Positions 13,401-47,467 of a stretch of 53,253 nucleotides of DNA are shown in pieces (within the stretch, counting starts at the first letter, position 1; each line of letters starts with the position of its first letter). Below the pieces are notes generated by a model. The model had not been told where the DNA came from. It saw only the letters and a list, made by a program, of their open reading frames with translations, and searched no databases. Location of the stretch: IMG/VR virus record IMGVR_UViG_3300042292_000140, positions 1-53,253 of that record. One strand, 5' to 3'. The translations under genes and the position numbers were made by a program. Origin of the DNA: a virus (taxonomy: Duplodnaviria; Caudoviricetes).

Positions 13401-16400
13401 AAATCGCTCTGCACTTAAAGATTTTACTTCGTTTACGGAATTTGCTTTGCTTTGAGAATTAACCTCGCTCACAGATTTTGATGCGCTTAATGATGCTAAC
13501 GTACTTGCAGACTTTATTGCATCTGTTGATTGCAATACGCTTAATGAATGTGATTTTTCTGCACTTAAAGAATTGGATTTTTCGGTACTTAAAGATTTAA
13601 TATTGCTAACAGATGCCGATTTGCTTAGAGCTGTAACCTCACTTAATGATTTTGATGCACTAATAGAATTTATTGTGCTTGTAGATTTTGCTGTAATTGT
13701 ACTTAAAGAAGTAGCAATACTTAATGATTTAGATGCGCTTATAGAATTAGCGGTACTATTTGATTTAACTTCTTTTAAAGAATTAGCCGCGCTTACTGAT
13801 GCAGAAATACTAAATGATTTTGCGGCACTCAATGAAGTATTAGCACTTAAAGATGCCGATGTACTAAAGGATTTAGCCATTGATGCGCTTGATGCATGAG
13901 CATCATTCAAGGATTTTGTTGCGCTTACAGAGTTAGCCACACTTAATGAGTTTGCCGAACTTAACGAGTTTCTAGCACTTAAAGATGAAGATGCACTTGC
14001 CGATCTTTCTATGGCCGCACTGGACGTAGTAGCAACACTTAATGATTTAGACTCACTTAAAGAATTAGCAGTGCTTAATGATTTAGATTCTTTTAATGAA
14101 TTAATAGTGCTTGTTGAAGCCGATAAACTTATTGATTTTACTGCTGATGTGCTTTGCAAATTTGCTGTGCTTAATGATTTTGATGCGCTTGCCGATGCTG
14201 ACGCGCTTGATGCTTTTTCGTCACTTAAAGATTTAGAATGATTAGCAGATTCTGCAACGCTTAATGATGCAGCAGTGCTTAATGATTGTTTAGCACTTTG
14301 TGCATTAGATGCACTCGTGGCAAGAGCAACTTTTAATGATCCAGCGGCAGATAACGAATGCTCTTTAGCTATAGATTGAACGGTTGATATGCTTAATACA
14401 TGCTCAGTGCTTATAGATTTTACGGTGCTTGTCGATGCAGATTTAACGTCCGCCAAAGATTTGTCTGCTTCTATCTTTTTTTGCAATGATTCTGATTTTG
14501 CAACACTTGCCGAGGATACTTTATAAGCACTTAATGATTTTGCTACGGTTAACGATTCTTCTTTTGCAGACGCAACAGACGTTGCAGAATTTGCACGAGA
14601 AGTGCTTGCATCTTTATTTGCTTGCGATAAAGAATTATAAGCCGATTCTAATTTTGTTTGTTGCTCTGACGTGTATGGTCCAATTTGTGAATAACTAGAT
14701 TGATTAGGATTTTTCTCAACTGTTAAATTATTTATTTCATTAGACGATGTACTTTGATTTGGTGTATTACTAACTGGCCCTGCAAAATCATTGACATTAT
14801 ATTTATTTGCCAAATCGTTTGTTGTTGTTTTTGTCGCATCAATAGCCTTTTGCTGTTCTGGAGTATAAGGTCCCATTTGCACAGAATTAGGCTGATTAAT
14901 ATTGTAAGCCGATACAAGATTATCCAATGTTGCAGGTTGATTATTTTGATTTTGAGCATTACTAACCGGACCAACAAAATTATTTGCAGATTTTTCTTTT
15001 TCAAGTTTTGCTTGTTCATCTGCTTTAATTTGTGCATCAGCTTGTACTTTAGCATCAATAGCTTTCTGTTGTTCTGGTGTATATGGCCCCATTTGTACGC
15101 TATTAGATGGATTGCCAGATACCAAATCATTTAATGTTACTGTTTGTGGTGCTTGATTAGGATTATTACTGACAGGTCCCATAACGTCATTTGGTACTTT
15201 AGGCACAACAGGTGAAATAACATCCGTTACCGTAGCACCAGGATCAAGCGTTGGCTTACCAGTATTATCCACCGTTGTTAGTGTAATTCCAGATCCATCA
15301 ATTGGTGTTTTAGGTGGAGTTCCAGGTGGAGTGCTATCTGGTGTTCCAGGTGGAGTTCCAGATCCAGTACCACTACCAGAACCAGTAGACTCAGTAGAAC
15401 CAGTTGAACCAGTAGACTCAGTAGAACCAATAGAACCAATAGAACCAGTTGAGCCTATAGAACCTGTAGAACCAATAGAACCAGTAGACCCTGTAGAACC
15501 AGTAGACCCTGTAGAGCCTATAGAACCAGTTGAACCTGTAGAACCAATAGAACCAGTAGACCCTGTAGAACCAGTAGACCCTGTAGAGCCTATAGAACCA
15601 GTTGAACCTGTTGAGCCAATAGAACCAGTAGACCCTGTAGAACCAGTAGACCCTGTAGAGCCTATAGAACCAGTTGAACCTGTTGAGCCAGATCCGCTTC
15701 CGCTATCAGATGTATTTCCTGATAAAGATGAATATGTAGATTCTAATGCTGACCCACTTCCAGAATCAATTACAGATCCACTAAAAGAATCAATTACAGA
15801 TCCACTTCCACTAAAAGAACCTGTGCCACTTCCAGAACCTGTGCCACTTCCACTAAAAGAATCAATTACAGATCCACTTCCACTAAAAGAACCTGTGCCA
15901 CTTCCAGAACCTGTGCCACTTCCACTAAAAGAATCAATTACAGATCCACTTCCACTAAAAGAACCTGTGCCACTTCCAGAACCTGTGCCACTTCCACTAA
16001 AAGAATCAATTACAGATCCACTTCCACTAAAAGAACCTGTACCACTTCCAGAACCTGTACCACTTCCAGAACCTGTACCAGAACCTGTACCACTTCCAGA
16101 ACCTGTACCAGAACCTGTGCCATCTGGAGTGCCAGGTGGAAGAACGACTGTTGTATCAGAAATTGCACCGCCCGTTACGGTATCTTTAACAACAGGTTTT
16201 GTTTCTGGTGCTTTATAATTTTGATAATTAGGATTGCCTAAAACATCACCCCACCACGAACCAGTTGCATTAACTAAGTCATAACGATTCTGATTGTACT
16301 TATCCATTAACGCTACTAATTCTGGTTGCGTTGTTGTTGGATTATTCTTTAATGTTTCATTTACATTTTTAGTGTAATTTTCGTAAGCAGGTGTACCAAA

Positions 16401-16679
16401 CTGTGGAATAACACTATTGCCAAGTTGTTTTTTGTATAAATCAGATTGAGTAGCAGGCGATTGAAATTGTGGCGCAGAATACATGTTTGTATTTTGCAAA
16501 CGATTATTGTATTCCTTTAAGTATTCTTGATACTTGGTTTGATCCGCGTCATACGCAGCTTGTTGCGCTGCATTATCAATCGTTATTGGTCCAGTTGGCA
16601 TAGGCGTGCCGCCATATGTATTGGTCGGATTGCTTAAGCCATATTGTTTCAATAACTCATCTAATTCATAACCGTACAT
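10500..16679 (-). CDS. 2059-aa serine-rich repeat protein in the ejection module
   Basis: Long ORF with AGGA SD; contains GSG, GST and (K/N)SLS repeat blocks; flanked by putative ejection genes. Confidence 0.8.
12960..14640 (-). repeat. Degenerate Ser-alternating hexapeptide repeats, (K/N)-S-(L/I)-S-x-x
   Basis: For example [18 protein letters not shown]; recurring CTTAATGA and CTTAAAGA words on the + strand. Confidence 0.85.
15380..15690 (-). repeat. 9-bp coding repeats (GST/GSI triplets) with a 72-bp higher-order period
   Basis: Near-identical 72-bp units start at about 15468, 15540 and 15612. Confidence 0.9.
15760..16125 (-). repeat. 72-bp tandem repeat encoding [24 protein letters not shown], plus GSGT runs
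   Basis: Units start at 15778, 15850, 15922 and 15994. Confidence 0.9.
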
Positions 16680-18218: not shown

Positions 18219-20020
18219 TATCTTGCTCCTCTCATATAATCTAATGGCGATTTAGCGGATGCACTAAATTGACCCTTTGCTAATTTTTTTCCTTTTTGCT
18301 TGCGAAGCTCTGTACGCATTTTATCAAGTCTTGCCGCACCTGCTTTGGTTGATCCATCGCCAAGTAATGCTACTGTTTCTGCGTCAATAACGTATTCGCC
18401 ATCAGAAAGTCTTGCATCTATTGTATCATCTCTGCCAGATCCAGATCCTTGTGCTAGATATGCAATTTTAGATAATCCACCTTGTGCTTTTAATGCTGGC
18501 GCAGGTTGAGCTACATTGTATTTTCCACTTGATACATCATTCCAATGCAATGCAGTCCACGTTGCAACGTCTACTCCTTCTTTTGCCGCATCAACCGCCA
18601 TTTTATCCCAATCCCATGTTGATAATGGCTTGCTCATATACTGCTGTTGTTCAGTTGTTAACTTGGGAGATGTTGCCACTGCTTGTTGTATTTTGTTAGA
18701 TCCGCCAAGTGCTGATGCAGCAGCTACACCACCAAGACCAAGCAACCCAATTGTTCCCCAGTCCATAGATTTATCGCCAGCAGGTGGTACTGAGCCTGTT
18801 GCAGGTGGTGTTTGAGTATTTGACCCAAAACCAACATTTTTCATTGCATCTTTATAGCCAGCCGAATTTTCATCAGCAGTTTGTTGCACTGCTTGATCAG
18901 CAGGAGAATTTTTATCCCAAACTCCTTTTGCAAGACCTGCTAATGCACCTGATGTAATTGCCTGACCTGGTTCATAACCTGCTGTCAGCATATTACCGCC
19001 AACCCGTGCGGCTGTATTTATGCCACTACCTAAGTTTGGACTTCCCGTTGCAAATTTATTGGCTAATTGCGGGCCAGCACCAGAAAGCGCACCACCAATA
19101 CCACCCTGCAATGCACCTTTCATAATGTCTTCATTAGTCAATGCATTCATACCACCGCCAATTAATGCACCGCCCACTGCTGACTGTGCAATTGGGTTTT
19201 TAATGCCTATAGCACCACCAATTTCAGATCCTAAACCAGCGTTTAATCCACCGAGTACACCAGATTGCAATCCACCTTTTAGTATGTTGTCACCCGTTAA
19301 GGCTGCCGCACCCGCACCTACTGCACCAGCAGCTAATGCTGTTCCTGCAATTTGACCTGCTTTACCTAGTCCAAAACCAGCCGCGCTACCAAGATAATTA
19401 CCTACTGCTGGCGCAAACACACCAATTGCCGCAGGCAAAATGGTTTTAATCACGTTTTTCCAATTCCACCCAAACTCACGAAGACCTGTGCGTGGATTGA
19501 TAGAACCTGATGCACCCATGTTTTTTAGCATAGCCGCTTCGCGTGGGTTGATATGCGCAAGCATCGTATCCCCACCACGACCAGCGGCTTGGATATGTTG
19601 CGCGGCACTTGCAAGACCGCCTTGTGCCATTGTTTGCGCAGGCATCATGCCTTGTGGTGATTGCGCAGGTGGCATCATAGGACGCTGTTGCGGTTGCGGC
19701 ATCATTCCTTGATTTGGCTGTTGCTCTTTACCTTCGATACGATCTCGCAAGCCATACAGTGCAATCAACAATGAAATGATAACTTGAGCATTGAATTCTG
19801 GAGGAAGCGTATCTTGATCTAACTTGCCATCCATAATGGCAGCAGCTCTGAGCTTGTCGTAATGCTCTGGATGATCCACTGCGGCTTCTAAGAATTTAAT
19901 CAAGCTATCAATGTCGCCAGATGAAATAGGCTGATCTGCAAACTTTTGCTCCATCTGCGTAATCGCTTGCTGATAAGCTGGGTTTCCGCGAACTAATTCT
20001 ACTAATATTTGTTTATCCAT
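18218..20020 (-). CDS. Gly/Ala-rich putative ejection (pilot-like) protein
   Basis: GRGGDTMLAHINPREA...INPRTGLREF, a long glycine-zipper region, and DDTIDARLSDGEYVIDA. Confidence 0.6.
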   Translation of the reverse strand: MDKQILVELVRGNPAYQQAITQMEQKFADQPISSGDIDSLIKFLEAAVDHPEHYDKLRAAAIMDGKLDQDTLPPEFNAQVIISLLIALYGLRDRIEGKEQQPNQGMMPQPQQRPMMPPAQSPQGMMPAQTMAQGGLASAAQHIQAAGRGGDTMLAHINPREAAMLKNMGASGSINPRTGLREFGWNWKNVIKTILPAAIGVFAPAVGNYLGSAAGFGLGKAGQIAGTALAAGAVGAGAAALTGDNILKGGLQSGVLGGLNAGLGSEIGGAIGIKNPIAQSAVGGALIGGGMNALTNEDIMKGALQGGIGGALSGAGPQLANKFATGSPNLGSGINTAARVGGNMLTAGYEPGQAITSGALAGLAKGVWDKNSPADQAVQQTADENSAGYKDAMKNVGFGSNTQTPPATGSVPPAGDKSMDWGTIGLLGLGGVAAASALGGSNKIQQAVATSPKLTTEQQQYMSKPLSTWDWDKMAVDAAKEGVDVATWTALHWNDVSSGKYNVAQPAPALKAQGGLSKIAYLAQGSGSGRDDTIDARLSDGEYVIDAETVALLGDGSTKAGAARLDKMRTELRKQKGKKLAKGQFSASAKSPLDYMRGAR

Positions 20021-27335: not shown

Positions 27336-29294
27336 TTACCCCGTAATTGCCCAACCACGCAATGTGGCTTGTGATGTATTGAGTATTCTAAATGCAAGCG
27401 TAGATGCCACTGCTGTTGTCGCGGCTGGTCTATCTAAAACAACAGATACGTTGGTGTTAATCGTTACAATTTTTGCATTGTATTTTAGCGTACCAGAGCC
27501 ATCCGTTGTTAATGTTAATGCAGAACCCCCAGACGTGGCCGACACTTGGAATGTATTGGTGGTTGCACTGATTACATAATAGATTGTATTGATTACAATC
27601 CCTGTTGTTGTCGTAATAACAGAGAACGACACCATACCACCATTAGATAAACCATGACTTGCAAGCGTTACTGTATCGCCTGCATCTTGAAATGTTACCG
27701 ACGCGCCTGTGGTAATTCCTGTACCTGTGCCGCTAACCGACATTCCCGTTGATAGTCCTGCGGTGCTTGCCATTGTAATTGTAGTAGACTGCGCTGCGGT
27801 TGTGCCTGTTAAGCTGACTGCTGTATCTGCGCCTGGATTTGTTGTAATTGTTAGTGTTTGAGATGTACCAATACCTAAGTTTGAAAACAGTAACTCTAAA
27901 GATGTTTTTGATAGCTTTAGTGCTGTGACAGAAAATGTAAATCTAAACCCTGTCATTGCTATTTTGCTTAGATTTACACATGTTGCAAACATACTGGCTA
28001 AACTAGCAGACGATGGTGCTGATGCCGTATTCAATGCTGGTAAGGATGTTAAACTTGAACAACCGTTAAACATAGTACTCATATTAGTAACTAATGCTGT
28101 ATTAAATAAAGGTACCGTTGTTAATGATGTGCAAACAGAAAACATACTACCCATATTAGTAACAGCGGCTGTGTTAAATAGCGGTACTGTTGTTAATGCT
28201 ATACAACTACTAAACATACTAGACATACTACCAGTAACAGCCGCTGTATTAAGTAACGGCACAGTCGTTAATGAAGAACAACTAGCAAACATATTATTCA
28301 TAGCAGTAACAGCCGCTGTATTAAATAAAGGTACCGTTGTTAATGATGTGCAACCAGAAAACATACTAGTCATGCCAGTAGCTGATGCTGTATTAAATAA
28401 AGGTACTGTTGTTAATGATGCACAACCAGAAAACATACTAGCCATGCCAGTAGCTGATGCTGTATTAAATAAAGGTACAGTCGTTAATGATGCACAACCA
28501 GAAAACATACTAGTCATGCCAGTAGCTGATGCTGTATTAAATAAAGGTACAGTTGATAATGCAGAGCATCCAGAAAACATACTATCCATAGCAGTAACAG
28601 CCGCAGTATTAAACAGCGGAACTGATGTTAAATTTCTGCAAGCGTTGAACATATTAGTTGTATTTGTAACGTTACTTGAAGACGACGATATACTAACATC
28701 TCTTAAGTTTACGCAACCATTGAACATATATGCATAACTCGTTAAACTTGCTGAATGCTGTCCAACCGTAGCGGATTCCAGTAGTCGGTGTACTACAGTG
28801 TTTGTTGACCCTGCTATCGTAATTGTAGTTAAAAATGCACCATTAAATGCTATATCAAGCCAAGAAGAATCATACGCAGATAATCCAGCAAACCCTGTAC
28901 TTGCGTTGTTTTTTACGTTTAGGTTTACAGTTATTAAATTAGTCGTTGTTGCTGTTACCGTTACAATAACTTGTTTATACGTTAATCCATTATGTGTAAT
29001 TGGACTACCCGAAACGCTTGCATAATCGTATAGATAATTAGCTTGTGCATTTGATGCTAGCGCGACAGTAGACGACCCATCCCCCCAATCAACGGTGTAA
29101 GTTCCACCACCAGATGCCGCGCCAATTAGCGCAATATAATTAGATTCTTCAAAAATAGCATACAAACCAACAAACTTTTGTTGCCCTGTAATATCGGGAA
29201 GTGTAGTCCAGTTAGGATCACGAACCCAAGGTGTTGGCTGATTACCAAGATTCTTTTTACTCGCCAGCTTTGAGCTTATTCTACCGGCAGACAT
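27336..29294 (-). CDS. Virion adhesin/fibre with BspA/DUF285-type 24-aa leucine-rich repeats
   Basis: About 10 copies of (S/T)VPLFNTA.(V/A)T.M.SMFSGC.SL; N-terminal TVDWGDG (PKD-like). Confidence 0.8.
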   Translation of the reverse strand: MSAGRISSKLASKKNLGNQPTPWVRDPNWTTLPDITGQQKFVGLYAIFEESNYIALIGAASGGGTYTVDWGDGSSTVALASNAQANYLYDYASVSGSPITHNGLTYKQVIVTVTATTTNLITVNLNVKNNASTGFAGLSAYDSSWLDIAFNGAFLTTITIAGSTNTVVHRLLESATVGQHSASLTSYAYMFNGCVNLRDVSISSSSSNVTNTTNMFNACRNLTSVPLFNTAAVTAMDSMFSGCSALSTVPLFNTASATGMTSMFSGCASLTTVPLFNTASATGMASMFSGCASLTTVPLFNTASATGMTSMFSGCTSLTTVPLFNTAAVTAMNNMFASCSSLTTVPLLNTAAVTGSMSSMFSSCIALTTVPLFNTAAVTNMGSMFSVCTSLTTVPLFNTALVTNMSTMFNGCSSLTSLPALNTASAPSSASLASMFATCVNLSKIAMTGFRFTFSVTALKLSKTSLELLFSNLGIGTSQTLTITTNPGADTAVSLTGTTAAQSTTITMASTAGLSTGMSVSGTGTGITTGASVTFQDAGDTVTLASHGLSNGGMVSFSVITTTTGIVINTIYYVISATTNTFQVSATSGGSALTLTTDGSGTLKYNAKIVTINTNVSVVLDRPAATTAVASTLAFRILNTSQATLRGWAITG

Positions 29295-35898: not shown

Positions 35899-36441
35899 TT
35901 AGAGGTCAAAAAGAGCCTCTCTATCATCGCCTAACTCCAAATTACCTTCACCAATAGACAAACGTGATTTTGATGCTTTTGCGGTTTGCTCTAAAAACTC
36001 TGCGGTGTCCGTAAGTTTTTCTTCTTCACGGAGTGGCGCATCGTGATGAGCTTCTTTCATATACTTAAAGTACAATGAGTTTGGCAATTTGAATGCAAGC
36101 ATCTCATTCACACCAATAAATCCTGTCCAGTCGCCTGTTTTAAGTGTGGCATATTCCCAGCCAGGAATATCTTCTGGCTTAATTGCTTCATAACCTAAAC
36201 GCATGCGCGTGTGGATTGAATCTCTTGGATTCGTCGTTGTTAGCCAGCAGGTGTGCCAGCCATCGATACTGGGTAAATCCGGTAAAGACGAATTAAAAAA
36301 TTGTTGACGGAACATTTCTACTCGCTCATCGTCTGTGACTTCCCGATTTTCTTCTATGGCTCGATCTTTCATCGTGCGACTTGTCCGAATATCGTTTCCA
36401 GCGGGTTTGTTTGATCTAATGCGTTCGTCTGTTGTTGTCAT
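35899..36441 (-). CDS. Conserved head-module protein
   Basis: LP..P...GWH.CWL...R.RLGYE..K pattern; lies between scaffold and capsid. Confidence 0.6.
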   Translation of the reverse strand: MTTTDERIRSNKPAGNDIRTSRTMKDRAIEENREVTDDERVEMFRQQFFNSSLPDLPSIDGWHTCWLTTTNPRDSIHTRMRLGYEAIKPEDIPGWEYATLKTGDWTGFIGVNEMLAFKLPNSLYFKYMKEAHHDAPLREEEKLTDTAEFLEQTAKASKSRLSIGEGNLELGDDREALFDL

Positions 36442-37417: not shown

Positions 37418-37825
37418 TCAGATGAATGCTTTAATTTTTAGTGGATCTGTTAAAACCTTGCCGATAATGTCAAGGTCATTAAATATTACAAACATTGCAG
37501 ATTCGTTGCTGTTTACTGGTACCTCGTATCGATCACCACCATACTTAGCTACACGCACAAAGTCACCTACTTGACACCAATCACCTTCAGGCCATGACTC
37601 TAAGGTTGTTCGATTCTTAAAAGCCACCGGACCTATCGACACAACTCTTGCCACCTGTGTGTTCCACTTCTCTGTGTCTTTTGTGTCGGTACTTAAAATA
37701 ATGCCGCCAGCCGATGTACTTTTTGGAGTACGAATCTGAACCAGAACGCGGCTCCCAAAAGGCTGGATGCCTGCTTCTACAGCAGGGAAAGCCTCAGCTA
37801 AAGCATTCTCATAAATCGTTGTCAC
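37418..37825 (-). CDS. groES: GroES/Cpn10-like co-chaperonin
   Basis: IQPFGSRVLV, TSAGGIIL, VV.IGP, VGD.V...KYGG, DLDIIG. Likely GTG start at 37825 with GAGG SD. Confidence 0.85.
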   Translation of the reverse strand: MTTIYENALAEAFPAVEAGIQPFGSRVLVQIRTPKSTSAGGIILSTDTKDTEKWNTQVARVVSIGPVAFKNRTTLESWPEGDWCQVGDFVRVAKYGGDRYEVPVNSNESAMFVIFNDLDIIGKVLTDPLKIKAFI

Positions 37826-38006
37826 GATATTTTTCCTCGTCAATTAAAGTTAAGAGTACGTTGATGGCAGCTTCATAACCTGCTACCACACCAGTGCGAT
37901 GCCCATACTCAAAAGCATCGCGCTGTACTGGTTGCTTTAAAGAGTCAACGCTGTATCTAAGCTGTGACTCTTTAAGGCGATTGAGTAATTTTGACTCAAT
38001 GTTCAT
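37809..38006 (-). CDS. Hypothetical protein
   Basis: EYG...G...G...A pattern typical of the gene upstream of phage groES; coupled. Confidence 0.65.
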   Translation of the reverse strand: MNIESKLLNRLKESQLRYSVDSLKQPVQRDAFEYGHRTGVVAGYEAAINVLLTLIDEEKYRDNDL

Positions 38007-38149: not shown

Positions 38150-40726
38150 TTAAGGATTAGGATTAATTCCAGTGCCAGTGCTGACACCAAACTTTTCACC
38201 GCTTATGATCTCAGCTTGCGCAAGTCGCATCGCTGTTTCGTTGTCAGCAGCGTTCATACGCTCTCTTGCCTGCATTTCAGCAGCAGAGCGTTGATTTTCT
38301 ACCTGCGCTTCAAATGCAGCTTGTTTTGCATTTGCCATTTCACGTTGTGCATCACGTTGCATCTCCATCATGTTTTCTTGAGCAGCTAACTGAAGTTTTG
38401 CTTTTTCAAGTTCTTGTGATTGTTGCATTCTGGCTTGATCAGTTTGTTGCGACTGTTGTAATTTAGCTTGTTCGATTTGCAATTTAGCCTGATCAGATTG
38501 CGCACGTTGTTGCATCGCAGCTTGTTGTGTTTGCGCGTTGAGCTGTGCAACTTGCATGGTGTTATCAGGTGGCAATTGTGGTTGTGGTTTGTACTGCTGT
38601 GCTTCTTGCGTAATCGTTGCAAGCTCTTGACCAAACCCATCTAATTGTTGCTCGATAAATTGTTGCACTTTCATCATCAAGCTAACTTGCTCAGATACAT
38701 CATTGCCAATCACATCATCTTTTTCTGCCTTAGATGCTGCTTTGTGTGATTCGGTTAAGTAATAGTTCAATAGATGATCACGCAAGTGAAGTGAAATAGG
38801 ATAAAGATAGTTCGTAATGATAGCAGGATTTTTGCCAAACAACGGTGATTGCAAAAATGCCATGTGCGTCATCAAGTGACCTAGATGATCTTGTTTGGGT
38901 AGCACATAGATTGGTCTTCCCATTGACGCTGCAACATTTTCGGAAATAGGATCCATATCCTCTTTTCCGGGTTCGGGTTGCAAGTAATCATCAGCCGATA
39001 ACTTCATGACCGTTAAGAACGCTTCCTCAACTTTGCGTTGATTGTACATCTGCGGGAACAATTGCGAGCGTTGCAGAATGGCTTGGTTTTGTGCAAAGCG
39101 TTGCGTTTCGCTAAAGATAGCAGGATCACTGACTGGGATGATGTCCATCGGGCCGTCAAAGTCTGACGGATCAATTTCAAGTCCAGCCTCGTATGCTTTC
39201 AAGTCTTCAACTGTTAAGTACGCAGAGTTAATGCGATGCAATACCTTTAGCACGCGATCCATCGAGTTGTGCAAACGCGCATGAATCGAACTAAATACCA
39301 CCATGCCTTGTTCAATCAACGCCATTGTAGTGCCAACAGGTTGATTAGGATTTTGATCAGACAGCTTCTCAAACGATGTTTGAATCACACCTTTGCCAGC
39401 ATCCACTAGGAATCCAAGCAATTGAAACAATACAGGTGATGGACCGTTAAATGGCAATGGCATGGCAATCTTGCGCACGTCATCAACCATTGCGCCACCA
39501 TCAAGCTCAACAACTTCTGTTGGTTGCACGTTGATAGTCTGACCGTTAGGACCGCCTTTAAGTTTTAATAATGTTGGCACGTTTTGAATGTGCGCTGAAT
39601 CAAGCAATGCACGAAGCGCACCAGTAGCCGCACCTGACAAACCACCAATCATTTGTGTCAAACTGATTGGATACGCACCACGCCAAGGAACGAATGGAAA
39701 CTCAATAATCCAGTCTAGCTCTTTTCTGTTTTCATCGTCCGGCTCCCAGTTTCTGTAGAGTGCAACGCCTTCGCTGGTTGTTTTATCAATACTTAAGATA
39801 TATGGTTCCATACCATCACCAAAGTCTAAGAACGTGTAGACTTCAAAAATGGTGCGAAGTCCATCCTCGTTGTAGCTGCTTTCCTTTCTGCCTTCAATCT
39901 TGTCGTTGGCTTGTGATGATTTGCTAAACTCTGGATCACTTGCGTAACCTAAGTCAACGTCGATGTACATGCCAGCTTTAACGCGACGCGCATATTCCAT
40001 CTTAGTGATGTATTGCACATGTGTCTTACGCTCTGCCGTATAAAAGTTGGTTGCAGCGAACGGCAGGTAAACGTCTTCAATAGCAATAAATTCTGCTTGT
40101 GGTCGCTTGTACTGGTTGTTCCACATCAACTTGAGGTATTGACCACCACCCAGTGGCAACTGCGTGCTAAGTTGCTCTAGCTCGCCTCTAAACTCTGGCA
40201 TCTGCTCAGTCAACTGCCAATTCATAAAGTCTGCTTTGCGCTGTGCCTTTGCAAGTTTTTCTTTTTCTTGCTCGCCTAGTATCTTTGTTTTGACAGGACC
40301 GTTAGCTGGGAAGATCTCTTTCATCACACGCGCAGAAAAATCCACGCACGCTTCGACAAGCATTGGATGCACAACTTTGTTTGCACCCGTGAACTGTGCG
40401 CCACCAGGTGCATCATCACCAAGACCTGTTCTGCGCAAACCTTCTTCGTATTGCTTGTCGCGTTTCTCGCGTGCTTCTTTATCGCGATCAATCTTTTCTA
40501 GCAGATCCTCAATCATGTCAGACAAGTCTGACTGATCTACTTCATCGATGATGTTAGCAAAATGCGCTGACTGTTCTTTTTCGTCTTTTTCGTTTTTGAG
40601 TTTGAGTATAGCACCGCCATCCTCTGTGTCTTCAACGTCAGATTCTTCGTCAGGATCAAACTCTACGTCTTCACCTTCCAACTCGTCTTCATCATCAATG
40701 TAATCGTCTTCAATTTTTTTAGCCAT
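38150..40726 (-). CDS. Portal protein (P22-like, long Gln-rich C-terminal barrel)
   Basis: F.GA..V.HP.L.EA...F.AR...E..PA.GPVKT, PVGTT.AL.EQG...FS.IH.RLH, IPVSDP.IFS. Confidence 0.85.
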   Translation of the reverse strand: MAKKIEDDYIDDEDELEGEDVEFDPDEESDVEDTEDGGAILKLKNEKDEKEQSAHFANIIDEVDQSDLSDMIEDLLEKIDRDKEAREKRDKQYEEGLRRTGLGDDAPGGAQFTGANKVVHPMLVEACVDFSARVMKEIFPANGPVKTKILGEQEKEKLAKAQRKADFMNWQLTEQMPEFRGELEQLSTQLPLGGGQYLKLMWNNQYKRPQAEFIAIEDVYLPFAATNFYTAERKTHVQYITKMEYARRVKAGMYIDVDLGYASDPEFSKSSQANDKIEGRKESSYNEDGLRTIFEVYTFLDFGDGMEPYILSIDKTTSEGVALYRNWEPDDENRKELDWIIEFPFVPWRGAYPISLTQMIGGLSGAATGALRALLDSAHIQNVPTLLKLKGGPNGQTINVQPTEVVELDGGAMVDDVRKIAMPLPFNGPSPVLFQLLGFLVDAGKGVIQTSFEKLSDQNPNQPVGTTMALIEQGMVVFSSIHARLHNSMDRVLKVLHRINSAYLTVEDLKAYEAGLEIDPSDFDGPMDIIPVSDPAIFSETQRFAQNQAILQRSQLFPQMYNQRKVEEAFLTVMKLSADDYLQPEPGKEDMDPISENVAASMGRPIYVLPKQDHLGHLMTHMAFLQSPLFGKNPAIITNYLYPISLHLRDHLLNYYLTESHKAASKAEKDDVIGNDVSEQVSLMMKVQQFIEQQLDGFGQELATITQEAQQYKPQPQLPPDNTMQVAQLNAQTQQAAMQQRAQSDQAKLQIEQAKLQQSQQTDQARMQQSQELEKAKLQLAAQENMMEMQRDAQREMANAKQAAFEAQVENQRSAAEMQARERMNAADNETAMRLAQAEIISGEKFGVSTGTGINPNP

Positions 40727-43700
40727 GCTTTGCCTCTCTTATTGATGTGGGTATCTTACCACTTTTTAGTGGTTGCGAATGTGTGGTTATCTGGATAGAC
40801 ACAGCAGCCGGTTCTTCTTCTTCTTGCTCATCCTCCATGCTGTCCATAAATGCTTTCATGATTTGCTCAATCGCATCGTTATGAAGCACGTCAACAATAC
40901 CACCGTGCGCGTACAAGTCTTCTTCTGTTGCAAAGATGGGTTTGCCTTCTGATAAGCGTTGATGTGCATGGTCAATGGCTTTATGCACAATACTGCGTGG
41001 CATGTCTTCACCGTCTTGCAAATGAAGAATAAGACGGATCTCGTCAGGTGTTAGCGTAGGCACCAGCGTTGGTACGTCCATTTCTTCACCATTGATAGGC
41101 ACACCAATTGAATATTCAGTCATCACGCCTGTACCGTCTGGACGTTCAAGCTCTCCGAAATAGCCAAGACCTTTCTTTGTTTTGTCTGGTCTGTTGCCAT
41201 AGCCATAGTCACTTTCTTCGTACTTGTCGTGTAGTGCTTGCACGCTGCCGCCTTTAGCAAAACCTTTAAGAGGTATGTCTTTATTTCTTTCATAAAATTC
41301 ATCACGCAGAGAATTTAATTCGTCATCAGTAACAAACCTACCGTATTTGTCGGTTGCTGCTTTATACAACTCTGGATGCATTTGACTTCCACTTTTATTT
41401 AAATCTGTTAATAACGTGTTTTCAAAATCCCCAACACTCGACCAATCTTTTGAGCGCACAAAGTCGTGAATAGCAGGCAAATACTTTTCATTAGGTGCTG
41501 CGTTTTGTTTGCCTTTGATTTGAACGATTTTTTCTTGAGGAGGTCCGTAAAGATCTTTCATAAAATTTATTGCGGATTTTTTCATACCTAAATGAGGATT
41601 AGCGGCATTATATTCACGCACGTCTGTTATTAATTTAGCTTGTTCATCGTAAGGTAATTTGTCCATCAACATGTTGTAATACAAATATTCGTCGGCAGGT
41701 TTGCTAGTTTCAATCGTCACATGGGGTTCACCACGTCTATCACGCAATGAATAGATGTTGGACTTGCCGCTACCAACCTCATCACAATACTGACCGACAC
41801 AATGCCCCATCGTGTCGCCTTCAAACTTCAGTGCGGCTTGTAGTGCATCACGTCTTTCTGCAATACGGTAATCTGCCAATGCTTCTTCTGGTGTTGACGC
41901 ACTTGCCCACTCGCCACCACTAGCATCAAGTACCGCTGGATTACCACGTCTGTCTTCACCAAGGTAATGCCCTTCTAGCAATGTAGGCTCTGGCATTTTC
42001 ATTTGCATCCAAGCTAATCCTTTATCTGGATATTCTTTGTGCATTACGGTTGCAGCGTTGCGACCTTTTTTGAGCTTCTCAGCTTCACGCCATGCGTTGA
42101 TTTTAGCAACATGCTCAACAGCCTGCGGCATGGAAACACGACTGAGCTTTGCTGGATCTATGCGCAGGAAGTCTGGTAGATCTGTGTCTGGATGTGTTGC
42201 ATTGCGAAGTTTATTTGCTAAATCGTAAAAACCTGTGTCATTAGTATCAGTGCTTTTTATAGCGTAAACATTTTGGTTTTCTGGCACTGATTCAAGCCAA
42301 GGATTTGCTTGTAAATATCTAGGACTTGTATCAAGCAATTCTTTTGCTTTGTCAACAGTAAACGCATTGTCAGCGTAATGCTCCCAAAGTTTAGCTAAAT
42401 CTGATTTAGCAATCCCTTCTACTGGGTAGCCTGCTTTTTTTCTTAATTCTTCAACATCATTGTATGGTGATATTTCTTTGTTGGGCGTGTAATGCAAAGG
42501 ATTATAGTTCTCAAGCTCTGAGATCTTATCTTGAATTCCAGCAGTTTCACGCTGTGCATTAGCCATGCGATTAGCAATCACTTCTGATGGCAATCCCATT
42601 TCTTCATACTTAGCGGCAAACTCTTGGAGGTTTGGTATCTTTGACTTTTGTTGACTGATAAGCACGTCACGTTTGGCAGGCCATTCCTCGGCAATACGTC
42701 GAACCGGATCTTCTGGCGTACCCATTTCGTTTTTAATATATTTAGCCAGCTTTTGTTGCAACCAATCGTTGACTGCTACTTTAGGAATTGTATCTTTATA
42801 TTCATAAGACGTAGGACTATATTTTCCAGACAATGCAGCAGATGCAACATCTGGATCAACATATTGTGAATAACGCATGGCTGCGTCTTCTGGTGTTATG
42901 TAATAACTTGCACCTTTAACAAAATTGCCACCTTTTGGTTTGATAATCATCCCAACATTGCCAGCTATTGCATTGCGTGCGGTGCTTTCGGCAGGACCGG
43001 CAAGCAACATGGCTGTGTCAGCCAAAGATTGTGCGCGTCCTTTTTTGAATTGCGGCACGTTACTCATCTCCGGTACACGCATAGGCGCATCACCATATGA
43101 CCAGTTTTCTATTTCTTCGGGTGCGTTTCCAAGTAGCATGTCACCAGCACCAGATCCGCCAAGTAGCGGAACCCAGTTTGGAACAGAATATTGATTGCCA
43201 GATGATTTGGCGTTTTGAAGTAACTCTGCAAGTCTTGCAAGGTTAGGCTGTTGTGGTATTGCTTTCATTTGTTGATTATCTGATAAATCCACTTCCCCTC
43301 CTTCTGCCCACTTAACCTTGTTTGCCCAATACGCGGCACTGCTTTTGCCTTTGGCAATGTTCTTTGCATGACGTGCCTTGAATGATTCACGCTTTGCTGT
43401 CATGCGATCTGACTCACCTTCTTTTGGCTTGCCTGCTGTTTCAGCACCTTGCTCACCAAAGCGAATGATATTCTCTTTGCCATCAACCATTGTTTTCACA
43501 ATGTGTGACTTGGTTGGATGGTTTGGCGTGCGTTGTGGTTTGTTTAATTCCATGCTGTCTTTGTCTACTCTGCCGCCTTGTGCGTAGCCTTCAACATCAA
43601 GCGACGGCCCATCACCCTCATACTTATAAATCAAGTCCTCTAATGGAATATCAGACAGTTTTCCACCAGCAAGTGGATAATTCTCACGACGTTGCGCCAT

Positions 43701-45914
43701 GTCCATATCAAGACGATCTTGCGTTGCGCGTGCTTGTGCTTCGCCTGTTAATTTTCGATATGCTTCAAAAGGACTTCCAAGACGCATTTTAGCAAAACTT
43801 TCTATAAATGCTTTACGATCTGCATCATTATCCATTTCTTGGTATCTTGGTAATGATTTGGCGTATTCAATAGTTTCATTTGATGTGTAATCAAGCGGGT
43901 TTCTTCTTATCATGGACTCATTACCGCCACGCCCCCATCCTTCAATTCCTTGAATAGCATGTTGTAATTCATGTGCCATTACTGAATTTTTAGTACCTGC
44001 TTCCACTGATGGATAATAAATTTCAATATTACCACCGCTCATACTTGGTGTAAAAGAACCATGAAATTTATCTGATTGACCACCAAATCTAGTAACACTT
44101 TCTCCTAGCTTTGGATAATTTTCAAATAATTCTGGGTGCGTATAAACATTTTTTGAAAAAGTACCTTTCCCAGCTTCTACGCCTTCATACACAGGCAAAT
44201 AATCTTGTAAGCCAAAATTGCGATTAATTTCATTTAACATTAAATCAGCATCAGCTTTTTTCTGTTTGTTATACGCTTTAATATCTTTTTCAAATAAATC
44301 TGGTTGCACTTTTAACGATGCGTTGCGTTCTTTAATTCCTGCTTTCATTCCTTCAGCAAGTATTTTTTGATAGGCAATTTTTTCTTCAATATTTCTTGGT
44401 GTTAAAAGATTTGCATCCTTATCACTAATCTCACTAAACAAAGTCTTATCCGGCATACGACCAATCAAATGCTCGCGCCACACTTCTGCTGGATCTGCGC
44501 CTTCATCTAATTTCTTAGCGGCTAATTCAGCAGCTACCTTATCCCAGTTTCTTGATTTAGGTCCAATGAATGATAATCCAACTGGCAAACCTTCCGTTGC
44601 CTTAACACCTGGTGCCAATGTTGTCAGTGCATCAGCAAGTGACTGCGCACGACCACGTTTAAACTGTGGTACGTTGCTCATCTCTGGTATCTGCATTGGT
44701 GCATTGCCATAAGACCAGTTCTCAATCTCCTCTGGTGTTTTGCCCATGAGTAAATCACCAGCACCTACACCACCGGCTAGTGGCACCCAACTTGGAACTG
44801 TGTATTGATTGCCAACGTCACGCGCACTGCCAAGCATCTCGGCAAGTTTGCCAAGGTTCTCGTTTTGGTCTTGTGCTTTTACAATCCCACCTTCTGCATA
44901 CTTCTCTTGCAACTCATCCAAACTACCAGCACGCTTTGTAATTTCTGGATACTCATCACCGAACATGACGTAGTTTGAAGTGTTTTCAGCTTGATGTTTT
45001 AAGCCTGGTATTCCTACTTTATCTAAATATTTAGAAAATTCTTCTTTACGAAGTGAATGATTTTCTGGAGAAAGTCCAAATGATTTTAAGTCTTCTGGGT
45101 ATGCATCTTGCAAATCAAATATTACATCAGCTACTTTTGAATCTTTATTATATTTTTGAAGAATATCTTTTTCTTTTAAAATATTTTTTACATAATCGCT
45201 TTGATCTTCTAATGACTTATCCCAATCCATTAAATGATGCTCACCAAGTGGATCTGTTGCTTCACGCTCTGCGTTAGGCCAGCGGATTGAGGTTTCGTAG
45301 ATATGACCACCAAGTTTTGATTTTAAATCTTTTGCTTCTTGCAATAAGGCATCATGCTTTTCCAAATCACCTCTAATTTTTGCAATTTCTGCATTGTATT
45401 CTTTTAAGAAAATTTTATTTCTTAAATCATCTACAGGAACACCAGCCGTCATATAGCGTTTTGCTATTTTTGGATCTTGTGCAAAATACAATCCTTCACC
45501 GTATGCTTGTGCGCCAGTTCCTGTGCCAATCTTTGACATGTCAAACCGATCAAACAAATGTGGCGTACCGTGATAGGCTTTGATTGCCATGCCAAGCGTA
45601 CCGCCAGACGATGCAGGAGCAAATGGCATTGCGCCTGTTTGCATAAGTCCTGCTAAATCAAGTCCTGCCTGTGCTTGTTCGTCTATTGATGGTGCAATAC
45701 CAAATGGAAACACACTTGACTCGTCAAGTATTTCGCGTGGTACACCACCAGCAGCATCAATGCTACGCATGAAAGCATCTTTTGCACGACGTGCCGCTTC
45801 TTGTGGATGCATCAAGCTCGATACAATAACTGAATCGTTTGGCTCAAAGTCTTGTGCATTTAATTTGTCTTTTAATACACCATATTGTTCTGCTAAATCT
45901 TTTAAGTCTGCCAT
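40719..45914 (-). CDS. Large polyvalent protein (ART-PolyVal-like, LPD23-like, zincin MPTase, PcfJ-like and other modules)
   Basis: YHGT...FD....GTG.GAQAYG.GLYFA; IW/VW...G...D.....EI.D; HELQH...GE..AR; EG..MGHCVG.Y...V..G...IYSLR...P.VTIE...QIKG..N. Confidence 0.8.
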   Translation of the reverse strand: MADLKDLAEQYGVLKDKLNAQDFEPNDSVIVSSLMHPQEAARRAKDAFMRSIDAAGGVPREILDESSVFPFGIAPSIDEQAQAGLDLAGLMQTGAMPFAPASSGGTLGMAIKAYHGTPHLFDRFDMSKIGTGTGAQAYGEGLYFAQDPKIAKRYMTAGVPVDDLRNKIFLKEYNAEIAKIRGDLEKHDALLQEAKDLKSKLGGHIYETSIRWPNAEREATDPLGEHHLMDWDKSLEDQSDYVKNILKEKDILQKYNKDSKVADVIFDLQDAYPEDLKSFGLSPENHSLRKEEFSKYLDKVGIPGLKHQAENTSNYVMFGDEYPEITKRAGSLDELQEKYAEGGIVKAQDQNENLGKLAEMLGSARDVGNQYTVPSWVPLAGGVGAGDLLMGKTPEEIENWSYGNAPMQIPEMSNVPQFKRGRAQSLADALTTLAPGVKATEGLPVGLSFIGPKSRNWDKVAAELAAKKLDEGADPAEVWREHLIGRMPDKTLFSEISDKDANLLTPRNIEEKIAYQKILAEGMKAGIKERNASLKVQPDLFEKDIKAYNKQKKADADLMLNEINRNFGLQDYLPVYEGVEAGKGTFSKNVYTHPELFENYPKLGESVTRFGGQSDKFHGSFTPSMSGGNIEIYYPSVEAGTKNSVMAHELQHAIQGIEGWGRGGNESMIRRNPLDYTSNETIEYAKSLPRYQEMDNDADRKAFIESFAKMRLGSPFEAYRKLTGEAQARATQDRLDMDMAQRRENYPLAGGKLSDIPLEDLIYKYEGDGPSLDVEGYAQGGRVDKDSMELNKPQRTPNHPTKSHIVKTMVDGKENIIRFGEQGAETAGKPKEGESDRMTAKRESFKARHAKNIAKGKSSAAYWANKVKWAEGGEVDLSDNQQMKAIPQQPNLARLAELLQNAKSSGNQYSVPNWVPLLGGSGAGDMLLGNAPEEIENWSYGDAPMRVPEMSNVPQFKKGRAQSLADTAMLLAGPAESTARNAIAGNVGMIIKPKGGNFVKGASYYITPEDAAMRYSQYVDPDVASAALSGKYSPTSYEYKDTIPKVAVNDWLQQKLAKYIKNEMGTPEDPVRRIAEEWPAKRDVLISQQKSKIPNLQEFAAKYEEMGLPSEVIANRMANAQRETAGIQDKISELENYNPLHYTPNKEISPYNDVEELRKKAGYPVEGIAKSDLAKLWEHYADNAFTVDKAKELLDTSPRYLQANPWLESVPENQNVYAIKSTDTNDTGFYDLANKLRNATHPDTDLPDFLRIDPAKLSRVSMPQAVEHVAKINAWREAEKLKKGRNAATVMHKEYPDKGLAWMQMKMPEPTLLEGHYLGEDRRGNPAVLDASGGEWASASTPEEALADYRIAERRDALQAALKFEGDTMGHCVGQYCDEVGSGKSNIYSLRDRRGEPHVTIETSKPADEYLYYNMLMDKLPYDEQAKLITDVREYNAANPHLGMKKSAINFMKDLYGPPQEKIVQIKGKQNAAPNEKYLPAIHDFVRSKDWSSVGDFENTLLTDLNKSGSQMHPELYKAATDKYGRFVTDDELNSLRDEFYERNKDIPLKGFAKGGSVQALHDKYEESDYGYGNRPDKTKKGLGYFGELERPDGTGVMTEYSIGVPINGEEMDVPTLVPTLTPDEIRLILHLQDGEDMPRSIVHKAIDHAHQRLSEGKPIFATEEDLYAHGGIVDVLHNDAIEQIMKAFMDSMEDEQEEEEPAAVSIQITTHSQPLKSGKIPTSIREAKHG

Positions 45915-45916
45915 GT

Positions 45917-47467
45917 CTACACCGCGTAAGGATTGATTCTCGGTTTCGCTTTGCTTGGCACATCGTCATAGTCTTTGGCTTCAGGTAGCTCAAACCATCT
46001 ATCGTTCTTGAAATAGATGATGGCTTGCGTGAAGGTATCAACATAGTCGTCATGCTCGGCAACAGGAAACTTAGCGAGTTGTTTTAAAAATGCAGCCGCC
46101 CAACTAACGGGTTGACCACGATTCTTCTTCGACTCTGGAATCCACAACAGTCCTAGCTCTAGTGTAGGTGCAGCTTGGTGTGCGCGTGAAATCTTGTCTG
46201 CTCTGTCAGGATTATAACCCACAGCAGGAACTTTCGCCAATCGCAGATCCTGCAAGAGTGATTGCCCACTTGCCTTGGCTTCGACCAAGATACGATCTGG
46301 ACGACGTGCGCGTGAATGCGGTGACTCCTTTGACATCCCACCGTACTCTGTACCCCAATCTTTGATGGCTTTAGCACGCAAATCTGGGTAGCTGAGATGT
46401 TCATCCCATGCATCAATGAGCATTGCGTTATGCAACCCTTCATGTGTGAATATCGCCCAAACTGTGCAAGCCGTTGGATCACCGGTTGTCTTCTCCGTAA
46501 AAGCACAGTCGTATGATTGTAGGATGTACTCGAAAGGAGGCAGACCATCATCGGCTGACCATAAGCCAAAGTGTTTGGTCTTGAGGATACCACCAGACAC
46601 CGGTGCAGGATCTTGTTGCAACTGTCCCGCTGTACCATAAGTGCCGAGCAATTGCTTAAGCATGGTGATTTCTTTTACGCCAAACCGATCAGGACAAATC
46701 AAGTCCCCTTTCTTTGTGCGTGGATCATATTCGCCAAGGATGGTCTTGCGTCGCTTGCCATCGTACTCTGCGGGAATACAGATATGCTCCCACCCTTTGA
46801 TGTCATTTAAGATATGACCGCTGATGTCACGCTCGTGCAGCCGTTGCATAACCGTCACCATCGCATCGGTTTTTGGGTTATTAAGACGTGTTGACCACAC
46901 CATGTCGAACCATTCGAGATCAGACTCGCGCATCGCCTCGGACTGAGCTGCCTGCGCACCATGTGGATCATCAAGTATCAAACGCGAACCACCTTCCCCT
47001 GTAGCTGTACCGCCAACAGACGTTGCGAGTCGATAGCCAGTCTTGTCATTCTCAAAGCGTTGCTTTGCATTTTGATCGCCAGCAAATTTGAACATGTGAC
47101 CCCAGCGTTCCTGGTACCAAGGTGATTGCAATAGTCGTCTTGTCTTTAAATTATCGCGTGTTGACAGTGTGCCAGAATACGACGCGCACAAAAACTTCTG
47201 AGCAGGATCTGTGATCCACTCCCAAGCAGGCCACATCACTGACACAATCGTTGATTTAGAGTGACGCGGAGGAATGTTGATTAGCAGTCGATGTATCTCG
47301 CCAGCACTGACTGCTTCAAGATGCTCGCAAATCTCCTCGATGTGCCATGACTCCATGAATTGAATACCGGGTTCAACCACATGCCATGACTGTTTAACAA
47401 ATTCATAGAGTGAAGCAGACGCTGCGCGTCGTGCCTTCTCAGCCTTAACTTTTTCAAGCAGTGTCAC
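45917..47467 (-). CDS. terL: Terminase large subunit
   Basis: INIPPRHSKS (Walker A variant), LILDDP, VMQRLHE.D, QSYDCAF, VEAKASG, FP...HDD.VD. Confidence 0.95.
   Translation of the reverse strand: MTLLEKVKAEKARRAASASLYEFVKQSWHVVEPGIQFMESWHIEEICEHLEAVSAGEIHRLLINIPPRHSKSTIVSVMWPAWEWITDPAQKFLCASYSGTLSTRDNLKTRRLLQSPWYQERWGHMFKFAGDQNAKQRFENDKTGYRLATSVGGTATGEGGSRLILDDPHGAQAAQSEAMRESDLEWFDMVWSTRLNNPKTDAMVTVMQRLHERDISGHILNDIKGWEHICIPAEYDGKRRKTILGEYDPRTKKGDLICPDRFGVKEITMLKQLLGTYGTAGQLQQDPAPVSGGILKTKHFGLWSADDGLPPFEYILQSYDCAFTEKTTGDPTACTVWAIFTHEGLHNAMLIDAWDEHLSYPDLRAKAIKDWGTEYGGMSKESPHSRARRPDRILVEAKASGQSLLQDLRLAKVPAVGYNPDRADKISRAHQAAPTLELGLLWIPESKKNRGQPVSWAAAFLKQLAKFPVAEHDDYVDTFTQAIIYFKNDRWFELPEAKDYDDVPSKAKPRINPYAV

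Follow-up and report, generated by a model that had tools for sequence, protein, structure and literature searches.

The minus strand of the 53,253-nucleotide stretch of viral DNA analysed here (IMGVR_UViG_3300042292_000140, Caudoviricetes; called the window below) encodes a 1731-amino-acid (aa) polyvalent, multi-module protein (40719..45914) in which the seven-residue motif [YWF]-A-x-G-G-x-V occurs five times. Comparison with homologous sequences indicates that the protein, which is polyprotein-like and, judged by gene context, head-associated, consists of separable units with the motif at their borders. The motif is very probably a specific recognition signal at these borders, because a peptide that stays invariant over unit families only ~30% identical would need a specific reader. 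That this signal is cleavable, and serves to process or sort autonomous head-cargo units that it delimits, is a more tentative proposal that in our estimation falls somewhat short of an even chance.

The motif and the units it separates

The five copies, numbered here from the N terminus, are connector 1, YAEGGIV (44880..44900, aa 339-345), which closes an N-terminal ART-like unit; connector 2, YAQGGRV (43566..43586, aa 777-783), which closes a unit containing the sequence HELQH; connector 3, WAEGGEV (43290..43310, aa 869-875), the tryptophan of which is the native C-terminal residue of a small basic unit; connector 4, FAKGGSV (41241..41261, aa 1552-1558), which closes a PcfJ-like unit; and connector 5, YAHGGIV (40893..40913, aa 1668-1674), which precedes a 57-aa C-terminal tail (40722..40892). 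All are in the minus-strand open reading frame (ORF) at 40719-45914, at the positions given by an earlier prediction made from the DNA alone (the original prediction). The composition of the protein leads one to expect 0.0035 matches by chance, and among 20,000 shuffles of the sequence 58 gave one match and none gave more than one. When all six frames of the window were scanned for reading frames of at least 60 aa, the strict pattern was confined to the 1731-aa ORF.

The original prediction also held that each motif closes a module, and several comparisons bear this out. The ends of BLASTP segments from 120 homologues pile up at the five motifs. The match to PHROG 7595 (aa 785-869) exactly fills the gap between motifs 2 and 3, which holds the small basic unit (43308..43565, aa 784-869; E 3e-34), and phage matches to aa 1565-1666 occupy the gap between motifs 4 and 5. 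This last gap holds a 110-aa unit (40911..41240, aa 1559-1668) that is homologous to gp49 of Acinetobacter phage Acibel007, a free-standing protein without the motif, and over aa 1559-1667 the unit shares 48-53% identity with small, independently encoded proteins of Acinetobacter and Pseudomonas podophages.

Among 5.8 billion proteins searched, 143 matched the 1731-aa protein; the best 120 of them were analysed, which makes 121 proteins with the query. These homologues are mosaic, with none aligned over the whole query, and the strict motif is present at module borders in 117 of the 121, in 431 copies and up to 7 per chain. The density of 2.8 motifs per 1000 aa compares with 0.04 per 1000 aa in portal homologues (5 copies in 3 of the best 150 of 3620 proteins), and there were no copies in the 120 proteins (best 120 of 1762) of the family of P0123, another protein encoded in the window. 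Among 422 copies with enough flanking sequence, the aromatic is tyrosine in 259, tryptophan in 91 and phenylalanine in 72; the pattern itself fixes A, G, G and V, the third residue is mostly E, D, K, Q or H, and the sixth is S, E, I or F. In 69 distinct connectors the codons for the invariant A, G, G and V match the background of the ORFs, and the 21-nucleotide connector sequences share a mean nucleotide identity of 65% with a median exact run of 5 nt. Together these values show that selection acts on the peptide and not on the DNA. Internal translation starts, with GGNGGN serving as a Shine-Dalgarno sequence and GTN as the start codon, were rejected as an explanation: only two of the five valine codons in the window are GTG, the glycine codons vary, and codon use equals background. 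A DNA-level recombination site was likewise ruled out by the background-like codon use at the connectors.

When the 121 proteins are cut at the motif they yield 582 pieces that fall into 82 families recurring in different orders, and the 461 junctions comprise 139 distinct ordered pairs of neighbours. The small basic unit alone has 10 different left neighbours and 17 different right neighbours, and stands first in 54 chains. The gene is located between those for the terminase large subunit (TerL) and the portal protein, in the window as well as in 19 related viral contigs that include at least one flank; the flanking TerL and portal proteins of these contigs are 80-100% identical to those of the window while the module content differs. 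Homologues have CHAP and M15 cell-wall hydrolases and ART domains among their modules, a repertoire that fits virion-borne proteins predicted to act at entry.

The joints also coincide with the native ends of free-standing proteins. The small basic unit occurs as a free-standing ORF of ~90-120 aa in many marine phages, and in 68 of 80 viral loci it is free-standing with a stop directly after ...ANKVKW. In 7 of the loci it is fused and continues W-x-[DE]-G-G, and the other 5 gave no unit end by the pattern used. Because the free-standing units end at the tryptophan that opens motif 3, the aromatic belongs to the upstream unit, and A-x-G-G-x-V forms a six-residue connector. At five loci the gene is split in two, and the last codon of the first ORF is the one for the aromatic residue with which, in fused forms, the next motif begins. 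This first ORF, a PcfJ unit, reads ...F-A-N-G-G-L-V followed by 25 residues, the last of them a tyrosine, and the stop, at the point where fused forms such as P0022 go on with A-R-G-G-S-V. The second ORF begins with a MADLKDLA leader identical to that of the window protein, which has a constant N-terminal leader, MADLKDLAEQYGV (45876..45914, aa 1-13), that in homologues precedes three different continuations. An element of ~90 aa, named here for its 'NWSYG' sequence, gives a further view of where units begin: its 50 copies in 46 proteins are found either at residues 10-20 of the chain (24 copies) or 5-15 residues past a motif (26 copies), and nowhere else. Thus, for the earlier proposal of a polyprotein of separate units, the placement of unit borders at the motif stands, with shuffling, natural splits and free-standing units that end at the aromatic all in agreement; the question of cutting is weighed below.

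Protein ends and other proteins with a putative place in the head

The motif is also frequent close to the ends of proteins. The last copy is no more than 70 residues from the C terminus in 94 of the 121 polyproteins, and no more than 25 residues in 64. Shorter relatives of the PcfJ unit (best 120 of 612) are mostly single-unit proteins of 550-750 aa, and 106 of the 120 carry the strict motif. A loosely defined motif is found within 70 aa of the end in 101 of these 120, and the pattern x-x-GG-x-[VILAMT] is present in the last 75 aa of 115. In 90 of the 115 it is followed by a [YF][DN]P..[IV][DE].[IL]-like peptide, as in ...FAQGGLV-TQYDPARIEALVSQLMDE. As a control, the same pattern was found in 20 of the 150 portal homologues, never with the following peptide, and in none of the 120 P0123-family proteins.

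Residues always follow the motif. None of 223 proteins with the strict motif ends within 6 residues of it; tails of 7-10 aa occur in 8, of 11-30 aa in 124, of 31-70 aa in 58, and longer ones in 33. Accordingly, 190 of the 223 have the motif with a 7-70-aa tail, which is the kind of short terminal peptide seen in T4 capsid targeting sequences and encapsulin cargo-loading peptides. The tails vary in kind between lineages, with helix-type, Cys-rich basic and acidic examples, while the motif is constant. The 57-aa tail of the window protein is constant within its lineage and comprises a predicted helix (from a low-confidence model), an acidic run and a basic end. Positions at the other end of the chain are rarer: the motif follows a short N-terminal leader at residue 12 of P0063, and a PcfJ-like protein of phage DSL-LC04 has three motifs in its first 61 residues. 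A tblastn search of cultured phages with a C-terminal tag gave a single irrelevant weak match, and one with P0493 matched DSL-LC04 as the sole phage.

In a sister lineage (TerL about 78-80% and capsid about 92% identical), the slot is divided among several ORFs, and in those for the PcfJ, ~270-aa, ~480-aa and 66-aa proteins the motif or a near match to it stands 6-35 residues before the end. Slot ORFs of ~150-420 aa in this lineage (L114, L121-L127, L130) end in [FY]..GG.[VAI], 2-9 residues, KEC[SD]C and 1-2 more residues, so that their ending is a conserved Cys-x-Cys tail.

Beyond the slot, the original prediction had pointed to two similar sites in a 600-aa protein that it called an ejection protein. 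This protein, P0123 (18218..20020, minus strand), does contain MAQGGLA (19610-19630) and KAQGGLS (18470-18490), and the first site is conserved, as [YWFM]A.GGLA, in 98 of the 120 family members, where the methionine of the window is often phenylalanine or tyrosine. The second site takes the form [KL]A[RKQ]GGAL[SN] in the family alignment, which used 58 of the 120 proteins. Neither the name ejection protein nor the idea that the two sites divide the protein found backing, and P0123 matched no PHROG or Pfam family. Roseophage CRP-207 gp58, which is encoded directly after the portal gene, carries YAEGGSV and FAEGGTL. The motif-bearing proteins represent three lineages: window type, DSL-LC04 type and CRP-207 type. 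Portal proteins themselves provide further cases. One of the 150 portal homologues, P0277, is a 1719-aa protein with about 870 aa of polyvalent modules N-terminal to the portal, with joints FASGGAV and FAAGGQV and with FATGGLV 9 residues from its C-terminal end, and three others (P0274, P0281 and P0300) have the motif plus 26-195 residues beyond the usual portal end. Judged by gene context, the motif is a feature of proteins predicted to sit inside the head.

P0123 and CRP-207 gp58 (L004 10600-13437) also share a C-terminal DD.I.A.LS[DE]GEYV[IV].A[DE].V sequence after the A.GG site, and P0123 has a highly conserved block, GDTMLAHINPREA.MLK...GSG.INP.TGL.E[FY]. A 139-aa basic protein from the structural module, P0122 (32885-33304, minus strand), has five x-x-GG-x sites (YSKGGAC, YKEGGTA, CKAKGGKV, CKAEGGKV and MKNGGKI), two of them within a tandem MCKA.GGKV repeat, and matched no PHROG or Pfam family.

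Processing, docking and comparison with known systems

In the reading that we prefer, autonomous cargo or effector units would be strung end to end in the hypervariable TerL-portal slot. Each unit ends in an aromatic residue followed by a standard A-x-G-G-x-V connector, and the same element lies 7-70 residues before the C terminus of most single-unit slot proteins and occasionally behind short N-terminal leaders. The exposed diglycine joint would be the point at which units and short terminal peptides separate, during or after head assembly, and the cutter would be a candidate protease distinct from the HELQH zincin, which is facultative. A fuller version, which is possible yet doubtful, is a plug-and-play head-cargo signal, in which the aromatic-A-x-G-G-x-V element and its tail load the procapsid and the cargo is later freed by a new Gly-Gly-specific protease or receptor. 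Packaging and delivery are suggested by gene context and by the portal fusion P0277; we infer packaging of the 1731-aa protein in the head, cutting at the motif and the position of the cut. Processing is favoured by the joints that are flush with native termini, by the motif never being terminal, by the lineage-specific tails, by the Gly-Gly pair itself and by the portal fusions, because cargo fused to a portal, as in P0277, could leave the particle only if cut. The layout, with one universal motif beside short terminal peptides specific to each lineage, resembles that of a sorting or processing signal, and the same short site is found at every unit border, as in viral polyproteins.

Several observations weigh against this proposal. 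A viral polyprotein is expected to have a cognate virus-encoded protease, and no protease family was detected among 40 window ORFs scanned with PHROGs or the 18 of those scanned with Pfam, so that the original prediction correctly noted the lack of a visible canonical prohead protease. The only matches to families with protease in their names were those of the capsid protein, through the capsid half of fused families. Two small ORFs in the head module, of 180 and 199 aa, offer neither conserved catalytic residues nor likeness to proteases; the 180-aa ORF (35899-36441) was rejected as a hidden cysteine protease since four relatives do not conserve its His and Cys, and an Atlas look-up for it gave unnamed clusters only. 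The capsid protein (304 aa) is of the HK97 type without a delta domain, and a separate scaffold-like protein is encoded in the head module. Capsids with a separate scaffold and no delta domain, such as those of P22 and T7, usually assemble without proteolysis. Tandem motifs lie 2-12 aa apart in 13 of 350 gaps, and conserved helix-like peptides of 16-25 aa occur between or after motifs; cutting at such places would yield tiny conserved peptides with no obvious use, which a multivalent docking tag would explain. The sister lineage also has, in its TerL-portal slot, a free-standing small basic unit without any motif. Finally, the HELQH module is decoupled from the motif: among homologues, 28 have both the zincin and the motif, 89 have only the motif and 3 only the zincin, which is thus absent from 89 of the 117 motif-bearing proteins.

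The strongest competing explanation, which like diglycine cutting was offered by the original prediction, is a tag that stays uncleaved and serves in docking or cargo loading. The motif, with the short helix that often follows, would bind the portal, the scaffold or the inner capsid wall, and the chain would be packaged and ejected intact. Each unit would bring its own C-terminal tag, and tags would be found at joints because tagged units have been concatenated. This explanation is rather unlikely but far from negligible. It accounts well for the single-module PcfJ proteins, which keep the element near their ends with nothing downstream to shed, and for the last motif being near the end of most polyproteins. 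Terminal clusters of two to three motif-plus-helix repeats suggest avidity, the motif recurs in the virion-module family of P0123 and on portal C termini, and the lack of a detected protease gene in a head module of the protease-less type is as this rival would predict. The 'NWSYG' element, conserved yet mostly modelled as coil, fits folding on a partner, although this is a weak argument. However, pure docking needs no residues after the motif, yet every one of the 223 proteins has them; the tails differ in kind between lineages around a constant motif, which is the usual layout of a processing site; portal-fused cargo would not be injectable without a cut; and the receptor is itself only a candidate.

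That nothing reads the motif, which would then be an inert flexible hinge inherited with its cassette or a short homology used for swapping, is unlikely. Cassettes are shuffled extensively with breakpoints at the motif, and Gly-Gly is a common hinge, but ordinary linkers drift, whereas here A, G, G and V do not vary, and the aromatic hardly does, across families ~30% identical, with synonymous sites randomised, and the motif is kept near the C terminus of single-unit proteins. With the nucleotide identity and exact runs given above, the DNA is also too dissimilar for homology-driven exchange. Self-processing, in which the internal HELQH zincin cuts at the motifs, is very improbable. The original prediction had named this zincin as a candidate protease, and zincin-like metallopeptidases are proposed to process polyvalent proteins in the main text of Iyer et al, 2017 (PMC5512222), by Iyer, Burroughs, Anand, de Souza and Aravind. 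The window protein does contain HELQHAIQ at aa 648-655, and the form HE.QH..Q is present in 31 of the 121 homologues. However, besides its absence from most motif-bearing homologues, the zincin was found in none of the 120 single-module relatives, including all 106 that bear the motif, and HE.QH..Q was absent from the 19 kb of L023 and the 26 kb of L011, two contigs with motif-rich polyproteins and with TerL 94-99% and portal 99% identical to those of the window. The 1731-aa protein matched no Pfam peptidase family at E<=1, and a PDB sequence search with aa 440-776 gave nothing significant (best E 0.46). Therefore, as far as these comparisons go, the internal zincin is not a general reader of the motif, and this part of the original prediction finds no support as a general rule.

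Two other mechanisms were considered and rejected. Gly-Ser self-cleavage, as in SEA domains, is at odds with the residue after GG, which is serine in only 200 of 422 copies and otherwise E, I, F, L or R. Mimicry of a GroEL-binding loop (SAGGIIL) would require the register A-G-G where the motif has A-x-G-G, and the consensus GG-S-V-[DS] lacks the hydrophobic triplet.

The protein belongs with the phage polyvalent proteins, a known class; what seems to be new is the connector, or terminal signal, together with its independence from the zincin. It has multiple unrelated effector-type domains, a packaging-gene context and a mosaic architecture among relatives. As in the polyvalent proteins described in the main text of Iyer et al (PMC5512222), it is large and multi-domain, is encoded among virion genes, has relatives with ART-PolyVal, zincin-like HExxH and LPD-type domains, shows extreme mosaicism, and is predicted to be packaged and delivered. 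Unlike the proteins in that account, it has a universal seven-residue joint that is decoupled from the zincin; the words 'glycine' and 'linker' have no occurrences in the main text of PMC5512222, which describes no conserved junction motif. Supplementary files aside, we found no description of the motif in the literature searched, and the words polyvalent, portal and protease have no occurrences in a paper on HTVC023P-type genomes (PMC9599517).

The motif can also be set beside four other kinds of short signal. T4 capsid targeting sequences are N-terminal peptides with an (L/I)-x-E site cut by the prohead protease gp21, on cargo that includes the ADP-ribosyltransferase Alt. The motif is similar in that short terminal peptides on head proteins share a short consensus site common to different cargo, but it is mostly C-terminal or internal and is based on diglycine, and the T4 protease gene is known. 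Polymorphic toxins have junction motifs, VENN in CdiA and DPxGL in Rhs, the latter also a cleavage site, and these too are short conserved peptides at the border of swapped variable cassettes. Each of these sits at one border only, where a constant delivery part meets a single C-terminal toxin; the joint described here links any two units and occurs up to seven times in a chain. Diglycine sites are processed by papain-like proteases of adenovirus, African swine fever virus and coronaviruses, by the C39 peptidases that cut bacteriocin leaders, and in ubiquitin-like precursors. Here as there, Gly-Gly stands beside a hydrophobic position, often after an amphipathic helix, and residues always follow; the aromatic at -5 and alanine at -4 relative to a cut after GG, and the invariant valine at +2, are different. 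No papain-like, C39 or JAB protease and no ABC family was found in the window scans, and the motif is mostly internal or C-terminal, unlike a C39 leader. Encapsulin cargo-loading peptides are short C-terminal peptides that, through a flexible Gly-containing linker, bring unrelated cargo into an HK97-fold shell. The likeness is a short conserved C-terminal peptide on unrelated cargo; the consensus differs, and the motif is also internal and repeated. The motif has the full set of defining features of none of these four systems.

Polyvalent proteins are thought to be an injected multi-tool that disarms hosts, and how such tools are loaded and separated has so far been answered only by the idea of zincin self-processing. 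Because the seven-residue joint is easily mutated, this question is directly testable. If the motif is a loading or processing signal, it would allow head cargo to be recognised by rule in uncultured marine phages, which are related to the abundant HTVC023P-type pelagiphages, and it might also serve as a tag with which to pack proteins into capsids. In the plug-and-play version, the phage lineage could freely swap and concatenate effectors in one genomic slot, the motif would be the phage equivalent of T4 targeting sequences and encapsulin cargo-loading peptides, and it would be a ready-made tag for foreign proteins to be loaded into capsids.

Domain content and gene neighbourhood

The module names in the original prediction fared unevenly. 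The PcfJ-like core (PF14284; 41700..41834, aa 1361-1405) scores 30 bits against a Pfam cut-off of 25 and is contained in the unit at aa 876-1551, and the HELQH sequence (43959..43973, aa 648-652), the zincin-like motif of a facultative module, conforms to the HExxH pattern of zincin-like metallopeptidases (MPTase) within a unit (aa 346-776) that matched no Pfam family. Unit 1 (44898..45875, to aa 339) has only a weak match to ART-PolyVal (PF18760) at aa 108-156, with 27.7 bits, below the Pfam cut-off of 31.2, and 43 of 140 profile positions; PF18760 is present in homologues, and in P0019 it scores above the cut-off at 40.9 bits. LPD23 (PF18838) gave no match in the 1731-aa protein at E<=1. In the homologue P0051 a sub-threshold match to LPD23 (20.4 bits, cut-off 27) is found ~80 aa ahead of HELQH, and a precomputed listing gives PF18838 for 4 homologues.

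Two copies of the 'NWSYG' head element of ~90 aa are present in the window protein, the first at 44595..44864 (aa 351-440) and the second, 65% identical to it, at 42981..43250 (aa 889-978). The element is strongly conserved; its AlphaFold2 model is mostly coil, with a single helix, at a predicted local distance difference test score (pLDDT) of about 30, and its folding may require a partner. A model of aa 860-1125 from a 43-row alignment had a mean pLDDT of 53.1, with ~30 for its first 134 residues (connector and head element), and one of aa 1540-1731 from a 28-row alignment, with a mean pLDDT of 33.5, was unusable. The structure models set the motif between helices, though only at pLDDT ~30.

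The window comprises all or a large portion of the genome of a tailed phage. The minus-strand gene order is primase/helicase, PhoH, small and large terminase, the 1731-aa ORF, portal, GroES-like, scaffold-like, two small ORFs, capsid and tail genes, with assignments from Pfam and PHROG. The variable slot is bordered upstream by TerL (45917..47467) and downstream by the portal gene (38150..40726), both on the minus strand; the 1731-aa ORF starts 2 nt past the TerL stop, and its end shares 8 nt with the start of the portal gene. The scaffold-like ORF is 304 aa long and highly charged, and for the 199-aa ORF there is a weak Atlas lead to phage cement proteins (score 0.83). The window lacks a terminal direct repeat and is probably a whole contig, since its length matches that of the longest one listed for P0123. 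The PHROG scan of 40 ORFs detected no family of endolysins or holins.

When named phages are ranked by the similarity of their portal proteins to that of the window, Caulobacter phage RW and its relatives come first (50%), followed at ~30-33% by roseophages CRP-901/902, phage DSL-LC04 and pelagiphages HTVC023P/027P. All of these phages share one arrangement of head genes, with the portal followed by GroES, scaffold, two small ORFs and capsid. The GroES-like gene inside the head module (37418-37843, minus strand) matches Cpn10 with 37 bits, has a mobile-loop-like SAGGIIL sequence, and is conserved in RW, HTVC023P and DSL-LC04. In phage RW (L005 2445-5247), TerL is annotated as two pieces with a gene for an SAM-dependent methyltransferase between them. 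Elsewhere on the minus strand of the window, a 2059-aa protein (10500-16679) has collagen triple-helix repeats (aa 331-387) and matches to tail-fibre PHROGs, and a 652-aa protein (27336-29294) has DUF285/BspA-type leucine-rich repeats.

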